Source: Chloroflexota bacterium (lineage in GTDB: Bacteria; Chloroflexota; Anaerolineae; Aggregatilineales; J027). From it: DNA of 64,000 nucleotides. The notes below the pieces were generated by a model that saw nothing but the letters and a program-made list of their open reading frames with translations, was not told where the DNA came from and made no database searches. The stretch spans positions 37,227 through 101,226 of the forward strand of contig JACRBG010000011.1 in the NCBI GenBank assembly GCA_016234595.1, read 5' to 3'. This document shows positions 23,722 to 29,091 of this stretch, one piece after another. The number at the start of each line of letters is the position of its first letter. Position 1 is the stretch's first letter. The position numbers were made by a program, and so were the translations under genes.

Positions 23722-24188
23722 CTTTATGACCTCCTAAAAACTGTAACCTTTAATTTTTTCTCTTTTATATCATGCAACAAATTTACTGTCTTAGGCCTGC
23801 CAAACTTGTGCCATGTTGGAAATCTCATCCATATAGACCTATTTGGGTGGGTGGCATAGCTTGTTTATTGAGGATGAGAAAAAAAGTAGACGAGTGCCCA
23901 CAGTGAAACAGACCCTGAACCGCTAACACGCGCTCCCCATCAGGGTCTTGCCCACTTGTTAGAGTCAATAGCCTATCCACAACGATCACAATTGGAGATT
24001 TCGATAACGACTGCCTAGAGAGGGGTTTGGCAGGGAGAGTTTTGAATTCCCCCTGCACCATCTGAAGTCAGCCATTACCAGTGACTTCAATCGGTAGTGT
24101 ACCACACCTTTTGGTACAGCCGATTTTTGAAGGAATCACTGAAGGCAAATCGCAAGTGTATTCGGGGTTTACCATCAGGAGGATAGCT

Positions 24189-25019
24189 ATGACCCCAGTT
24201 TTTGTACTCACCAATCATAAGGGCGGCGTGGGGAAATCTACGTCCGCGACAAATATCGCGTTTGGCATCGCACAGATGCTGGCGCAGTTCGGCGTTGCCA
24301 ATCATCGGGTGCTGTTGATTGACACCGACAGTCAAGGGCACGCCACCCTCGTCACTACCAGTCGGAATGATTTCGGACGTGAGGATAGTCTGTATACCGT
24401 ACTCAATGCTGATCGCAAAGATGCCGCCACTGTATTGAAGCAATGTATTGTGGCAAGCGAATGGGACGCCGATTTGCATGTCCTCCCCGCCTCCCCACTA
24501 CTCGAAGCCGCCGAACGGGAATTAATCGCCGTGCCCGGTGCGCCCTACCGATTATCAGAACCCCTCGCTCAGCTTGCCAGTCACTATGCAGCCATCGTAA
24601 TTGACACCCGCCCTTCCTTCTCCCTACTCACTGAAATGAGTCTAATCGCCGCGACGGATGCGCTTATCCCAATTGAGCCGCGTTATCTAGAAACAGTCGG
24701 TTTGGAATCAGTGGTCAATAAGATTGAGTCCATTCGGCAGGGCTGGCGTTGTCCGGATTTGAAGGTGAGTGGCATCGTCGTCACCAAACTCGACAAACGC
24801 ATGAAGGGCCATGTCGAGATGGTCGAAAGCCTCAAAGCCCATCCGGTACTGGGGCGGTTGCTGTGTGGGGTCATTCCGGCCAACGAAGCAGTGGCCTATG
24901 CCCATCATGCCCATAAAAGCGTGTATGCGTACAACCCCGAATGTCCCGCCAGCCAAGCCTATGCGGTGTTGGCAGCCCGTCTCATCAAAAAAACAATGGC
25001 GATTAGGGGAGGTGCGTGA
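24189..25019 (+). CDS. parA: ParA family partition ATPase
   Basis: Deviant Walker A KGGVGKST, LIDTDSQG, VIDTRPS; ATG 24189 after AGGAGG. Confidence 0.93.
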   Translation: MTPVFVLTNHKGGVGKSTSATNIAFGIAQMLAQFGVANHRVLLIDTDSQGHATLVTTSRNDFGREDSLYTVLNADRKDAATVLKQCIVASEWDADLHVLPASPLLEAAERELIAVPGAPYRLSEPLAQLASHYAAIVIDTRPSFSLLTEMSLIAATDALIPIEPRYLETVGLESVVNKIESIRQGWRCPDLKVSGIVVTKLDKRMKGHVEMVESLKAHPVLGRLLCGVIPANEAVAYAHHAHKSVYAYNPECPASQAYAVLAARLIKKTMAIRGGA

Positions 25020-26224
25020 TGGCAAAAAAAGCCGATACTCCCAATCGGATTAATGCCCTGCTGCAAGATGTGGGGCAGATGATGATTTTGAATGCTGATC
25101 CCGCTGAACGGTTGGATGATAGTCAACTCCGTGTTGAAAACCTGCCCATCCAACTGGTGCGGCCTGATCCGGCCCAACCCCGGCGAGTGTTGCCCGAAGG
25201 GATTTACCAAGCGTTTCACCAAGAACACCTCACGCCGTATCAAGCCCTGAAGGAACTTGTTCAATTGGTGCAAATCGCGGCGCGGCAAAAGGGGCGACCC
25301 TTTACCCATGTGCTCGATTTACTGCCGAATCCGAATGACGAAACTGAGGCGGAAGTCACGACGACACTCTTGCCAGAGGAAACTCTGCTGCGGGATTTGG
25401 TCAACTTGGCCGTGACGATTCGGGATGATGGTCAGGTCAATCCGCTGACCGTGGTGGATAAATCCGAAGGGGTGAGCCACATCTATCAAATTGAGACAGG
25501 CGAACGGCGCTACTGGGCGACATGGCTGATGATGGAATTCCTACCGGGGTATCAAGGCAATGGTTCTATCCCTTGCATCATTGTCCCCTCCAATCGAGCC
25601 TCGGTTTTTCGTCAGGCTAAAGAGAACACCTCGCGGGCTGGTCTGAACGCCATTGCGATGGCACGGCAGGCGGCACTGTTGTTGTTAGCTGTACATGGTA
25701 TTGTGCCACCCCTTGAAGGGCCAATCTCCAACGATTTCTATCGTCTGGCTCTCGAATTTACCCTGAGAGATAAGCGCGACTATGCCAACGATATTCTTGC
25801 CGCGATGGGTGGAATTACCCGTAGCTACTTCAGCTACTACAAATCCTTGTTGCGCCTTTCTGATGACGCGCTGGAATTGGCGGATCGTAACAGCATTGAT
25901 GAAAAGAAACTCCGCTATGTTGTTTCACTGCCGGTGGAAGCTCAGGTTGAAATGGTGCGCCAGATCATAGACTTTGGCTTGACTAGTGCGCAGGTGAAAG
26001 AACTCTGCTCAGATGAAGCAGGGCTGGATAAGTCAGTGGATGATCAATCTCCTAAAAAAGCAAAGCAATTAATCAAACTCATCCGCGCCACAATGGACAC
26101 CACCCCAGCCCAATTTGCACAGGCTTTAGTTGATCAAGAAAAAACCGTGCACATGGCAAAAGCTCGCCTCAATGAGCTTCGTGAGCTGTTTGACGAGGTA
26201 GAGGAATTTCTGAGCAGGCAATAA
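25019..26224 (+). CDS. parB: ParB family partition protein (CTPase N-domain)
   Basis: VRPDPAQPRR, GQVNPLTV, IETGERRYWA (GxxR motif); coupled to the parA stop. Confidence 0.85.
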   Translation: MAKKADTPNRINALLQDVGQMMILNADPAERLDDSQLRVENLPIQLVRPDPAQPRRVLPEGIYQAFHQEHLTPYQALKELVQLVQIAARQKGRPFTHVLDLLPNPNDETEAEVTTTLLPEETLLRDLVNLAVTIRDDGQVNPLTVVDKSEGVSHIYQIETGERRYWATWLMMEFLPGYQGNGSIPCIIVPSNRASVFRQAKENTSRAGLNAIAMARQAALLLLAVHGIVPPLEGPISNDFYRLALEFTLRDKRDYANDILAAMGGITRSYFSYYKSLLRLSDDALELADRNSIDEKKLRYVVSLPVEAQVEMVRQIIDFGLTSAQVKELCSDEAGLDKSVDDQSPKKAKQLIKLIRATMDTTPAQFAQALVDQEKTVHMAKARLNELRELFDEVEEFLSRQ

Positions 26225-26248
26225 ATTGTTGACCCGGGTCAACAATTT
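26223..26248. promoter_or_regulatory. Perfect 26-bp palindrome, candidate parS centromere
   Basis: aaattgttgacccgggtcaacaattt, no spacer, directly at the parB stop codon. Confidence 0.7.
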
Positions 26249-26261
26249 TGAGGAGCAACCC

Positions 26262-26366
26262 ATGACTAACCGATCACGTGACCCGCCGAAAAAAGAAAAA
26301 CCGCCTTACCAGTTAGGGCAGGCGGACAGGTCAGGTCAATCAATTAATCAAAATCAATTGCAATAA
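26262..26366 (+). CDS. 34-aa leader ORF upstream of the replication protein
   Basis: GAGGAG RBS at about 26250-26255; MTNRSRDPPKKEKPPYQLGQADRSGQSINQNQLQ*. Confidence 0.5.
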   Translation: MTNRSRDPPKKEKPPYQLGQADRSGQSINQNQLQ

Positions 26367-26375
26367 ACCGTAGCA
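26288..26375 (-). ncRNA. Predicted counter-transcribed antisense RNA (ctRNA-like, about 85 nt)
   Basis: Minus-strand promoter TTGCAG-N17-TACAAT and terminator CCGCCU-N13-AGGCGG-UUUUUCUUUUUU. Confidence 0.65.
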
Positions 26376-26381
26376 TGTTTC

Positions 26382-26410
26382 ATTGTAATTGGTTCGTGAC
26401 CTGTCTGCAA
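26382..26410 (-). promoter_or_regulatory. sigma70-type promoter of the antisense RNA
   Basis: -35 TTGCAG (26410-26405), 17-nt spacer, -10 TACAAT (26387-26382). Confidence 0.65.
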
Positions 26411-26465
26411 GCACCGTCAACCACTATTTGACATTTGAAAACTTAACCCGGACAGGAGCAACACT

Positions 26466-28814
26466 ATGGCTAGTGTGTCACAGGAATCGCTGATCGTTCA
26501 GGCCGCCCAATCCAGTAGCCTCTTGGATGCGGCATTGATGTATGCTCGTTTAGGGATGAGTGTTATCCCCCTGAAAGGGAAACGCCCTTCACTGTCTAGT
26601 TGGACGCAACTTCAACAAGTTCGCGCCGATGCCGTTGTAATTCATCGCTGGCAGCGGAATGGGCTGCTGCATAACGTGGGCATCGTCTGTGGAGCAGCCT
26701 CACAAAATCTGGTTGTTTTGGATACCGATGGTGCAGCCAGCTATCCAGCTTTTGCTGCTATGTTCCCTAAACTAGCGGAGACCTATACCGTTGCGACGGG
26801 CAGCGGCAAAGGCCACCACGTCTATTTCTATGTGGAAAAACTGCCTGAGAGTATCAAGGCTATGGGTCTGCCGATTGGCAATCTTGAATTGTGCGCGAAT
26901 GGGCGACAGGTGGTCGCTCCGCCAAGTTTGCATCCAATCACGGGTAACCCCTATCGGGTGCATAAGGCCTTGGATATTCTGCGGGTCGAAACGCTTAATG
27001 AATTGGCTGAGTGGATTAAGTCGTTCAAGGCCAAACCTGCGTTTGCACCAGTCCACTTTTTGCCAGTGTCACCACATGATTCTGCCAAATTGAATCCAAA
27101 GGTAATGGAGGAAATTGAACGACATTTTCTGCGACAGGGGTATCGAGAAGTCGGCGAATGGCTGCATGGGCCGTGTATTTATCCCCATCGGCATCAGCAT
27201 GGCGACCGCAACCCTTCCTTTGGATTCAATCGCTTCAGCGGATTTGGCTCGTGTTTTGTGTGTGGCACGATTCTGGCGAAAGACATCTGTGCAGCGGTTG
27301 GGATTGATGTCAGTGTGCTAGGCGGGTTGGTGGAAAAGTCTTTTAACACCAACCCCCATCACCAGCCCACAGCCGTTAGGCTGTCTTTACCACCTACGGA
27401 ACCTCCGATTCCAAGTGAAACCAAGCTATCTAGTATTGCATTGCCACCAAGCACCCCGCCACCTTCTGAACCGAGTCAGGGATTTGCGATGAATGATCTC
27501 AAACTCCCAGAGTGGCTCAAACTCTATGTGGAATGGGCCGGGGCGACGGGTAATCAGACACCGTTATCTTTCCATCTTGCGGCGGGATTGTGGCTGTTGT
27601 CGGTCGCGGTGGGGCGACGTTTGTATGGTGCTGCCCCTTGGGGAGTGAAGATTTTCCCCAATCTGTATTTGATGCTCATCGCGGCGACGACCTATTATCG
27701 CAAATCCACCGCTTATAAATTGGCGGAGGGCATCGCACATGAGGCCATTCCACATATGCTCATGCCAACACCGGGTTCACCCGAACGTTTTCAAGAGGCT
27801 CTGGCGGGCCAACTACCGGGTAATTTTGACAAGCTCAATCCAACCGAACAAGAACTTTTTCGCAAGGCACAGCCGTTTGCAGCCCAGCGCGGGTTGCTTA
27901 AGGATGAGGTCGCTGGATTATTTGGGGTCATCAACAAGCGGGATTATATGGTCGGCATGAAAGATTTGTTGATGGAACTCTATGACTGCCCTGATCGCTC
28001 TAGTAAAGAAACACAGGCGGGAGTCACGATTGTTGAGAAGGCGGCTTTATCCATCTTGGGCGTGACGACTCCGGCAGGTTTGGCGGCTGGGGTGAGTGAG
28101 GCGGATTGGGCGAATGGCTTGCTGGTACGCTTTGCCTTGATTACACCTGAAACAGATTATGCCGAGCGCCCCGCAGCCATCGCCTTTCAGTCACCACCAC
28201 CGAAGCTCATTGAGGGCTTACGTCGTTTACACGAGCGCCTGCCAAATCCTGTCCGGACAGAACGCGGATTGACCCCACCGAGTGCCCTGCAATTGGATGT
28301 CACCTGCTGGCGTGAATGTCAAAATTATGGCGATCATCTGCGCCGCCTGTGTGCACCGCAGCAAGACACTGAATTAGATGAGCGACTCAAGGGCGTCTAT
28401 GGGCGGCTGCATGTCCAAGCCTTCAAACTTGCTACCCTGATGGCTGCCTTAGATTGGCTAGATACCGACACCTCGGCGCCAACACTCACAGTTGACCATT
28501 GGGTGATGGGGGAGACTATGGCTGAAACATGGCGTATGAGCGCTCATCGTTTGCTTGAACAAATGGATCGGCGGGGTGAGGCTAGTCATGAACGTCGCCA
28601 GCAAGATACATTGTTACGGGCGATTCGACAGGCAGGGGCTGAAGGGGCGAGTCTACGGGTGTTATATCGTAATCTCCACCTGACTGCCCAACGTGCGCGA
28701 TTGTTGGCCCAAGAATTAGCGCGTGCAGGCTTGGTGGTGGAACGGCGTTTTAGTGGCATTGAGTGGTATGTTGCTAGTGAATATGCCACAGATGAGACTC
28801 CTGCCATCGGGTGA
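26466..28814 (+). CDS. Putative replication initiator: bifunctional primase-polymerase + Zn-binding domain + DUF3987/YfjI-like NTPase + winged helix
   Basis: N-term LGMSVIPLK, NVGIVCG, LVVLDTD, TGSGKGHHVYF, QVVAPPSLH; CIYPHRH...DRNPSF...CFVC; NLYLMLIA....RKST and GLLKDE. Confidence 0.82.
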   Translation: MASVSQESLIVQAAQSSSLLDAALMYARLGMSVIPLKGKRPSLSSWTQLQQVRADAVVIHRWQRNGLLHNVGIVCGAASQNLVVLDTDGAASYPAFAAMFPKLAETYTVATGSGKGHHVYFYVEKLPESIKAMGLPIGNLELCANGRQVVAPPSLHPITGNPYRVHKALDILRVETLNELAEWIKSFKAKPAFAPVHFLPVSPHDSAKLNPKVMEEIERHFLRQGYREVGEWLHGPCIYPHRHQHGDRNPSFGFNRFSGFGSCFVCGTILAKDICAAVGIDVSVLGGLVEKSFNTNPHHQPTAVRLSLPPTEPPIPSETKLSSIALPPSTPPPSEPSQGFAMNDLKLPEWLKLYVEWAGATGNQTPLSFHLAAGLWLLSVAVGRRLYGAAPWGVKIFPNLYLMLIAATTYYRKSTAYKLAEGIAHEAIPHMLMPTPGSPERFQEALAGQLPGNFDKLNPTEQELFRKAQPFAAQRGLLKDEVAGLFGVINKRDYMVGMKDLLMELYDCPDRSSKETQAGVTIVEKAALSILGVTTPAGLAAGVSEADWANGLLVRFALITPETDYAERPAAIAFQSPPPKLIEGLRRLHERLPNPVRTERGLTPPSALQLDVTCWRECQNYGDHLRRLCAPQQDTELDERLKGVYGRLHVQAFKLATLMAALDWLDTDTSAPTLTVDHWVMGETMAETWRMSAHRLLEQMDRRGEASHERRQQDTLLRAIRQAGAEGASLRVLYRNLHLTAQRARLLAQELARAGLVVERRFSGIEWYVASEYATDETPAIG

Positions 28815-28816
28815 AT

Positions 28817-29003
28817 GCGACAAATGCGACACACGCGACATGCGACAGTGCGACAGCGATAAAAAATATGGCTTTGGCTATTATCATGCTCACGGCGTTT
28901 TCCGGAATGACACTGAAGAAAATGCTATGAAGCACCATAAGTCTATATCGCTATGAGATATATTTGTCGCGCTGTCACGTGTCGCATCTGTCGCGTTTGT
29001 CGC
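28817..29003. repeat. Two inverted arrays of GCGACA hexamers, candidate replication origin
   Basis: GCGACA at 28817, 28826, 28835, 28842, 28850; TGTCGC at 28965, 28980, 28989, 28998 and TGTCAC at 28973; about 110-bp spacer. Confidence 0.75.
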
Positions 29004-29091
29004 ATAAATTTGAGGGCCACATGGAAAGGTTAGTAAGGACGAGTATAATCAGCAGGTCAGTTTGGCTGGCTCACGAAAAGGGGCATTTTTT

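Follow-up and report, generated by a model that had tools for sequence, protein, structure and literature searches.

Replication origins of Staphylococcus aureus pathogenicity islands (SaPIs) consist of 6-12 penta- or hexanucleotide iterons immediately downstream of rep, half of them on each side of an AT-rich centre and in opposed orientation, which are read by the winged helix of Rep (PMC9371898). DUF3987 has been shown to be a 5'-3' helicase (PMC11724360). It occurs fused to an archaeo-eukaryotic primase (AEP) in integrated mobile elements (PMC5862659), and AEP-DUF3987 proteins are found nearly always on such elements (PMC5862659; PMC11724360). In repABC replicons, a partition ATPase, ParB, a counter-transcribed RNA (ctRNA) and an initiator follow one another on one strand (PMC3155836, PMC7610768). 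Here, we describe a cassette with likenesses to all three, located at positions 24189-29003 of a 64,000-nucleotide stretch of DNA (the window; C57:37227-101226 in our labelling) from the 59-contig, 5.2-Mb genome of a Chloroflexota bacterium (G000; relatives of the same genus are labelled G001, G002 and G003-G005, and loci L001, L017 and so on). An earlier note, made from the sequence alone, had read it as a self-contained, repABC-like replication and partition cassette of a plasmid or chromid. The cassette is a coherent, selected unit, but not a plasmid or chromid origin: it is the terminal replication-partition module of a 59.8-kb island beside tRNA-Arg(CCT) in the chromosome. We consider it, with a probability of about three in four, to be the maintenance module of an integrative, probably mobilizable, element.

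An empty integration site was located by DNA comparison across the genus, followed by targeted sequence retrieval. The same-genus genome G001 has no cassette. Its sequence stays collinear with that of G004 and G005 until precisely the left cassette edge (window 23896), past which it runs straight into tRNA-Arg(CCT) and then into sequence that lies 55.6 kb distant in G005. Homology of the window to orthologous islands begins abruptly at the same position, 23896. The island is integrated at the 3' end of the tRNA gene (G005:C21 75212-75286; G000:C53 c[2031,2105], minus strand in G000), and adjoining this gene is a large serine recombinase of 567-589 residues with Resolvase and Recombinase domains (G005:C21 75285-76985; G000:C53 332-2032), which is 96% identical between G000 and G005. 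In G000 the island amounts to 57,796 + 2,030 = 59,826 bp, reaching from window 23896 to C57:118917 and on through C53:1-2030, the end of C57 abutting the start of C53. Its GC content is 0.462 compared with 0.496 leftward in G000, with a further pair of values of 0.448 and 0.505. One independent Logan contig spans both cassette junctions with even depth. The locus combines a recombinase at the island end, an empty attB in a relative, a shared att core of approximately TGCCC and an attP joint (found in the G005 ortholog only, in one run), as a serine-recombinase integrative element should. No tyrosine integrase was found on C57 or C25; the recombinase proved to be serine-type and to lie on a contig other than C57. 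A sister island of about 60 kb with the same layout occupies tRNA-Arg(CCG) on G002:C11, and its recombinase is 53% identical.

Evidence for a circular form comes from RNA libraries of a reactor study that also holds the G005 genome. One 151-nt contig (run X13) links the parA and recombinase ends of the island at the att core, as seen from both sides, with the joint sequence …CACTGTGGGCA running into AAACCATGTGG…; a circular (or tandem) form of the orthologous G005 island therefore exists. In the circle, the recombinase gene, attP, the 293-nt island end described below, parA, parB, the leader and rep are all co-directional, a layout that makes read-through into the par-rep genes possible. The same principle is known from Tn916, where circularization is needed for transfer-gene expression. 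In the four metatranscriptomes of this study, RNA contigs cover the G005 orthologs of parA, the 3' end of parB and the 293-nt end, and almost none cover rep. G000 itself is contained in DNA runs only.

The order of the island is attR, 293-nt end, parA, parB, leader and antisense region, rep, origin, polysaccharide and other cargo, MarR, ECF sigma factor, rel347, ribbon-helix-helix (RHH) protein, helix-turn-helix (HTH) protein, serine recombinase, attL and tRNA-Arg. At the attR side, the island end (23896-24188, plus strand) is a structured 293-nt stretch upstream of parA, with a terminator-like hairpin at 24098-24128. It folds into five hairpins (minimum free energy z-score -3.1 on the plus and -3.3 on the minus strand), has no Rfam match, and is 99%, 96% and 87% identical at the nucleotide level to three other species, despite a parA dS of 0.7-1.2. 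It could be an attP arm, an operator cluster or a non-coding RNA or leader. The cargo extends from 29062 to 64000 in the window and on to C57:118917 and C53:1-2030, beginning with polysaccharide biosynthesis and export genes; the islands of G000 and G005 have both ends in common and differ in the cargo between them. Near the far end, rel347 (347 aa, C57:116320-117363) contains the stretch HRDNPHSHIILPG (HRDNPHSH), which resembles the histidine triad of relaxases, and gives no Pfam or NCBIfam match. In nearly all family loci without parAB, a rel347 homolog is found at 1-1.6 kb on the upstream side of the initiator gene. The protein family, which has almost constant linkage to the initiator, is a candidate relaxase or nickase.

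All three cassette genes are under purifying selection. dN/dS is 0.02-0.07 for parA, 0.07-0.17 for parB and 0.06-0.08 for rep, and their dS of 0.4-2.1 is similar to the values for two flanking genes, which encode an epimerase and a UDP-glucose dehydrogenase.

The six parts that the earlier note had seen in one unit of about 4.8 kb are all present, namely parA, parB, a palindrome, a leader with antisense signals, a PrimPol-DUF3987 gene and mirrored GCGACA arrays, and the whole set was found again in 14 distinct homologous loci of related Anaerolineae genomes, which is beyond what chance would give. The synteny of parA, parB and initiator is kept in these 14 loci at initiator identities as low as 59%, and the conservation that the note expected extends to the palindrome (11 of 12 loci) and the hexamer arrays (about 60 of 65). 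The relatives are Chloroflexota of the class Anaerolineae, among Aggregatilineales and Phototrophicaceae-type metagenome-assembled genomes, in agreement with the Chloroflexota-like host that had been proposed. Within the genus and family of the window the initiator family is multicopy, with up to 10 matches per genome; class-wide, a full-length homolog occurs in just 2 of 301 Anaerolineae genomes, and the family is therefore lineage-restricted. Homologs located mainly in integrase-flanked satellites or prophages without parAB, or cis elements that are not conserved, had been named by the note as speaking against its reading. Half of this pattern was found: the cassette belongs to an integrase-bounded element and parAB is missing from about 50 of 64 family loci, yet 14 loci retain it and the cis elements are strongly conserved.

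Further family members were seen within G000 and in another chromosome. A second intact initiator paralog, about 60% identical and with GTGACA iterons, lies at G000:C25:160500-180000 (L001), where its neighbours are a topoisomerase IA, an actin-like (ParM-type) protein, an RHH protein ending in RKPPED, an HU-like protein, a STAND NTPase and TPR genes; here the same replication core seems to be coupled to another partition module. A lone parA fragment at G000:C20:150416-150679 (L002 9369-9680), 83% identical to the cassette ParA over 88 aa, adjoins neither parB nor an initiator gene and is probably a remnant. In the closed 6.09-Mb chromosome of G041, the initiator copies at 612-622 kb and 963-966 kb are split or truncated, so some family copies are decaying inside chromosomes.

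The initiator, here called Rep, is a protein of 782 aa (26466-28814, plus strand) that matches Prim-Pol (1.7e-23) and DUF3987 (3.4e-11), both above their gathering thresholds (PF09250, 84.3 bits against 22.8; PF13148, 43.4 bits against 27). Alignments and an AlphaFold2 model give the layout AEP PrimPol, CHC2-like zinc ribbon, proline-rich linker, DUF3987 ATPase and C-terminal winged helix. The Walker A and B motifs are TTYYRKST and LLKDE, and R-K-x-T is invariant in 29 sequences. In the model the PrimPol domain and the C-terminal region are confident, the winged helix being predicted with helices at 730-736 and 741-753 and a beta-hairpin at 757-770. A Foldseek search with this model returned pRN1 ORF904 (1rni; E 2e-6, target-normalised TM 0.61), then the NrS-1 primase-polymerase and then many winged-helix domains. 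By sequence, the PDB gave only a marginal pRN1 match, NCBIfam gave none, and Pfam matches were limited to the two domains. Rep thus shares with pRN1 ORF904 and the described AEP-DUF3987 proteins (PMC5862659; AgaPP/AgaPH, PMC11724360) a PrimPol domain, for which 1rni is the structural match, joined to a DUF3987 helicase. Unlike these systems, it is a single polypeptide that also carries the zinc ribbon and the winged helix, has a cognate iteron origin and deviates in its Walker A motif. Since PrimPol-DUF3987 replicases have already been described on integrated mobile elements (PMC5862659, PMC11724360), the initiator type is not new.

The candidate origin (28815-29005) directly follows rep. Five copies of GCGACA (28817-28855, starting at 28817, 28826, 28835, 28842 and 28850) begin 3 nt past the stop codon and are separated by a 109-nt spacer of 62% AT from five inverted copies (28965-29003), four of them TGTCGC and one TGTCAC. 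At least three direct copies of the pentamer core, spaced by 7-9 nt and beginning 0-20 nt after the stop codon, occur in about 60 of 65 distinct family loci, and the inverted set is also present in most. The hexamer is clade-specific, being GCGACA, GTGACA, CCGACA, GCGAAA or YTGACA, and covaries with the sequence of the winged helix, 'LH' occurring with G[T/C]GACA and 'LN' with [C/A][C/T]GACA. Judging from this covariation and the structural model, the C-terminal winged helix would set iteron specificity. In its predicted workings the origin resembles most closely those of the Pri-Rep systems of SaPIs and other phage-inducible chromosomal islands (PICIs), i.e. SaPI1 Rep and SaPI5 PriRep5 (PMC9371898), which likewise pair a primase-helicase initiator bearing a C-terminal winged helix with short iterons right 3' of rep that form two sets of opposite orientation flanking an AT-rich centre, and in which the initiator-iteron pair varies among related elements. 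The primase of the island is, in contrast, an AEP PrimPol and its ATPase DUF3987, whereas the SaPI ATPase is MCM-like AAA+; the island moreover is 60 kb long, has no phage link, adds ParABS and antisense/leader control, and resides in Chloroflexota.

The partition genes precede rep on the same strand. parA (24189-25019, plus strand) encodes a Walker-type partition ATPase of 276 aa (Pfam AAA_31 1.3e-31, CbiA 3e-16), whose ParA-like NCBIfam matches all stay under the equivalog cut-offs, TIGR03453 partition_RepA giving 55.8 bits against a cut-off of 348. parB (25016-26224, plus strand) encodes 402 aa with a ParB_N match of 26.4 bits (cut-off 26.3) and HTH_ParB at 5.6e-6. In NCBIfam it matches generic ParB and Noc models only, under their cut-offs, with nucleoid_noc at 4.9e-11 over residues 257-366 (Noc/Spo0J-like HTH). 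The protein also contains the motif GERRYWA, which we take to be of the GERRxRA (CTP-box) type. Overlapping the parB stop codon is a perfect 26-bp palindrome, AAATTGTTGACCC followed by GGGTCAACAATTT (13+13; 26223-26248), which occurs once in the 5.2-Mb genome and is our candidate parS. It was found in 11 of the 12 parAB loci in which the gap between parB and the PrimPol gene was read, with substitutions symmetric across both arms, and is doubled in tandem in L018 and L019. A Walker ParA, a ParB with an N-terminal ParB/Srx domain and HTH, and a nearby palindromic candidate centromere together suggest a type I ParABS system. A six-frame search of G000, G001, G002 and G005 found no canonical ParB (PF02195) elsewhere, and G000 contains no canonical parS within one mismatch; the genus may be without a chromosomal ParABS system.

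With repABC replicons (PMC3155836, PMC7610768) the cassette shares the order of partition ATPase, ParB, counter-transcribed RNA (predicted here) and initiator on one strand, a palindromic parS (a candidate here), and the possibility that several mutually distinct cassettes share a genome. The resemblance put forward in the earlier note holds for this gene order and for the predicted antisense control region between parB and the initiator gene, and goes no further: RepC is missing, ParA falls short of the RepA equivalog model, ParB gave no match to a RepB model of NCBIfam, the iteron origin lies outside the initiator gene and not inside it as in repC, the predicted RNA belongs to no Rfam family, the host is one of the Anaerolineae and not of the Alphaproteobacteria, and the element is integrated, not autonomous.

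Between parB and rep lies a leader mini-ORF (26262-26366, plus strand; MTNRSRDPPKKEK...), whose true start is probably the ATG at 26262 behind the Shine-Dalgarno (SD) sequence GAGGAG. It contains the codons R-D-P-P at 26277-26288. The motif [S/T/A]-R-[D/G/S]-P-P is invariant in all 14 parAB loci, with Arg and Pro codons that differ at synonymous third positions, and is encoded by an invariant GG.GG…CG.G block of the intergenic alignment. It begins 5-8 codons past the ATG, so that the general form is M-x4-7-R-[D/G/S]-P-P; the peptides have 9-35 residues, and in six loci the ORF terminates directly after PP. RAPP-like arrest peptides have the form R-[A/G/S/D/P]-P-P and stall the ribosome while Pro-tRNA occupies its A site. 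RGPP, RSPP and RDPP are arrest-permissive, RAPP-like motifs that are avoided strongly in proteomes and enriched near the C-termini of small regulatory upstream ORFs (uORFs), and no replication genes are named downstream of such uORFs (PMC12992588). Like the RAPP arrest peptides ApdA, ApdP and SecM (PMC10951233, PMC12992588), the leader peptides are encoded by a small co-directional uORF and have R-x-P-P, where x is G, S or D, as their last residues or close to them. They differ in having no signal sequence in their 9-35 residues, in an antisense terminator that abuts the motif, in that arrest is here a prediction, and in that the downstream gene encodes a replication initiator and not a Sec/YidC, TonB-related or copper-related protein. 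With motif and small-uORF context present in 14 of 14 parAB loci, ribosome stalling is predicted. In all four metatranscriptomes, a contig running from the G005 ortholog of parB stops no more than 2 nt away from the Arg codon of RGPP (L017 11503-11505, about window 26277), while DNA contigs run unbroken across this boundary. Processing at this site, protection of the RNA end by a ribosome or a coverage effect could account for the RNA boundary.

On the opposite strand, a gene for an antisense RNA of about 85 nt is predicted at 26289-26410 (minus strand), with a -35 element TTGCAG (26410-26405), a spacer of 17 nt, a -10 element TACAAT (26387-26382) and a start at about 26375. Its terminator (26325-26289, minus strand) consists of a CCGCCT/AGGCGG hairpin (26325-26301) and a 12-nt T-run (26300-26289), so that the predicted 3' end (26289) directly abuts the PP codons (26283-26288). 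A generic promoter and terminator scan missed these signals because the -35 element matches at only 3 of 6 positions and the loop has 13 nt. In an alignment of 12 intergenic regions with a mean column identity of 53%, neither promoter hexamer varies except at the fifth base of the -35 element; the CCGCCTG arm is likewise invariant, and the terminator is clear in six loci. ATTGTA, the antisense -10, keeps a constant distance in all 14 parAB loci and is not so placed in any of the approximately 50 loci without parAB, one of which has the hexamer but at a different distance (-27), and the combined arrangement with R-x-P-P is absent from all of these loci. No Rfam family was found in 23.5-29.3 kb at E <= 5. 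Rfam includes ctRNA families.

The sense leader may also form a long-range helix (26322-26408, plus strand), in which GCGGACAGGTCA (26322-26333) pairs with TGACCTGTCTGC (26397-26408). In six loci the duplex has a predicted energy of -20 to -27 kcal/mol and a z-score of -2.4 to -5.4. At two of its pairs the clades differ by compensatory changes, and its 3' arm is also complementary to the SD region of rep, GGACAGGAG (26450-26458). As the pairing register varies between clades, RNAalifold yielded no more than the palindrome and a long-range helix of 5 bp, and duplex energies were used in its place.

Integrative elements with their own replication and partition include those of actinomycetes (AICEs), e.g. 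pSAM2 and pMEA300. Others are the integrative and conjugative elements of the SXT/R391 group (PMC4489591) and staphylococcal cassette chromosome mec (SCCmec; PMC7581432). All of them resemble the island in using a specific chromosomal site and in excising to a replicable circle, which in SXT is also actively partitioned. The protein families differ: SXT relies on relaxase-driven rolling-circle replication and a ParM-type system, and SCCmec, which combines large serine recombinases with a primase and a helicase, has Cch/CCPol. None of these groups has been reported to carry parS-ParB-ParA together with a PrimPol-DUF3987 Rep, or an RxPP leader. The earlier note knew of no description of the combination. 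As regards the replicase, this has to be withdrawn (PMC5862659, PMC11724360). Novelty lies in the family as such, within Chloroflexota, in the series of iteron specificities, in the coupling of an RxPP mini-ORF to a predicted antisense RNA and in the co-directional recombinase-attP-par-rep layout.

These features suggest how the element could be maintained. The serine recombinase has placed the island at the 3' end of tRNA-Arg(CCT), from where it could leave as a circle. In the circle, Rep would bind its own GCGACA iterons via the winged helix, melt the AT-richer spacer, load itself as a helicase and prime DNA synthesis, as SaPI Pri-Rep does at origins of the same layout. ParB would load at the single palindromic parS by its own gene, and ParA would then partition the circle. 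Rep output would be limited between parB and rep by the antisense RNA of about 85 nt, by the sense-leader helix, which the antisense RNA would open, and by the R-D-P-P mini-ORF, whose RAPP-like arrest motif lies immediately 5' of the antisense-paired stretch. Read-through across attP could raise par-rep expression after excision only. That Rep synthesis is gated jointly by all three, i.e. the RAPP-like mini-ORF, the abutting counter-transcribed RNA and excision-dependent read-through from the recombinase gene across attP, is a tentative proposal that we hold to be rather doubtful as a whole.

Several observations weigh against the element and its control being as we describe them. The attP joint is supported by one contig in one run and concerns the orthologous island of G005 rather than that of G000; it was found neither in the DNA runs, whose contigs show the integrated form only, nor in a second study. 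A screen of part of the island ORFs turned up no conjugation machinery, no excisionase and no relaxase that could be confirmed. In G000, moreover, the chromosome to the left of the island is unlike the corresponding flank in the other species. As regards Rep, its Walker A motif is deviant, with R replacing the second G, and the ATPase core is modelled poorly. As regards control, no contig covers the antisense region in any of the four metatranscriptomes, the pairing that would sequester the SD sequence is weak and not significant (z -0.5 to -2.3), and the leader helix is not significant in more distant clades.

The reading in which the cassette serves an autonomous plasmid or chromid as its working origin and partition system, with C57 as part of this secondary replicon, draws on the complete par-rep-origin set and its purifying selection, on the occurrence of several cassettes of differing specificity within one genome, as in compatible replicons, and on C57 itself, which is slightly low in GC and, as the earlier note anticipated, carries no dnaA. 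The empty site in G001 and the tRNA-Arg/serine-recombinase boundary, however, mark a chromosomal insertion; core chromosomal blocks flank the cassette, and DNA contigs continue across the island edge into chromosomal sequence without a change in depth. The GC-skew inflection sought near 28.9 kb is absent: the skew, which is informative in G000 because it flips at dnaA on C44, continues unchanged through the cassette in C57 (119 kb), in G005:C21 (all 384 kb) and in G002:C11 (400 kb of 946 kb). Relatives of the cassette are located inside the closed 6.09-Mb chromosome and a 6.25-Mb contig, and PLSDB, INPHARED and IMG/VR contain no full-length homolog. This reading is largely refuted and, in our view, extremely improbable. 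A captured origin that fires within the chromosome and so serves the host, whether as a conditional or secondary origin or by partitioning the chromosome, would agree with intact family copies found amid cellular genes in Mb-scale contigs, with the apparent inheritance of the cassette together with its flank across four species under purifying selection, and with the lack of a canonical ParB elsewhere in four genus genomes and of a parS. We nevertheless regard it as improbable. The straight GC skew shows no local disturbance, the intact recombinase, att sites and attP joint indicate a mobile life, copies are decaying in one closed chromosome, and G001 has no cassette at all, so the host does not need it.

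Mobility of another kind would be that of a P4/PICI-type phage satellite, replicated from its iteron origin after induction by a helper phage; the origin layout, the fused primase-helicase-winged-helix initiator, which matches SaPI5 PriRep5, and the integration beside a tRNA gene are all as expected for one. A satellite is nonetheless very unlikely: the element measures 60 kb, its cargo consists of polysaccharide genes, the island ORFs screened include none for capsid, terminase or packaging, ParABS suits stable low-copy maintenance, IMG/VR has no relative and phage records give partial domain matches only. The fragmented family copies elsewhere, and the fact that no integrase lies within 30 kb of the cassette, would rather fit an inert remnant of an integrated plasmid whose conserved features are merely inherited. 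Against this stand dN/dS values of 0.02-0.17 at saturating dS, non-coding control elements that are invariant amid intergenic sequence at 53% mean column identity, the transcription of the ortholog and the existence of the attP joint, which together make an inert remnant very improbable as well. We therefore retain the integrative element with its own replication and partition module as the preferred reading.

Some observations on flanks and contig ends stand apart from these arguments. Left of the island in G000 (window 23814-23896) is a core block with a TolB-like protein and histidine kinases that is located elsewhere in G001 and G003-G005, and the flank expected from the other species (kinase-WD40, an FHA protein and a 560-aa secreted protein, 'p560') sits on G000:C45:29383-33525. 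The island junction is at the same nucleotide in G000 despite the differing flank, which suggests a rearrangement at the att site. In the attR flank of G005 (L017 13879-13936), a strain variant in runs of another study is without 56 nt of flank at the island edge. At window 23767, some 130 nt to the left of the island edge, the match between the window and a contig of run X1 breaks off, and the contig continues with different sequence (ATAATTTTAACCAAATTGAT…); it probably stems from a co-occurring relative with a different arrangement. The circular contig that the earlier note had considered did not materialize, C57 having no terminal overlap: its first 141 nt recur at the end of C45, oriented such that the two contigs fork and do not join. 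Small circular contigs among the relatives were likewise rejected, with terminal overlaps in 0 of 19 whole short contigs.

Our analysis sets out for the first time the anatomy of a family of replicative, partitioned integrative elements from Anaerolineae, the filamentous Chloroflexota of sludge and groundwater. It illustrates that a replication module without a visible integrase can belong to an island whose recombinase lies 55 kb away. One initiator scaffold with at least five hexamers and winged-helix covariation offers a natural series for studying initiator-origin specificity and incompatibility. We know of no plasmid or vector system for Anaerolineae, and the 5-kb cassette, which comprises iterons, candidate parS and control region, might serve as a minimal replicon in genetic tools. 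If the R-x-P-P mini-ORF does stall ribosomes, RAPP-type peptides would extend from protein-localization genes to replication control; and should the threefold gating hold true, a ribosome-arrest peptide would take part in the replication control of a mobile element, whose replicon would be silent while integrated.

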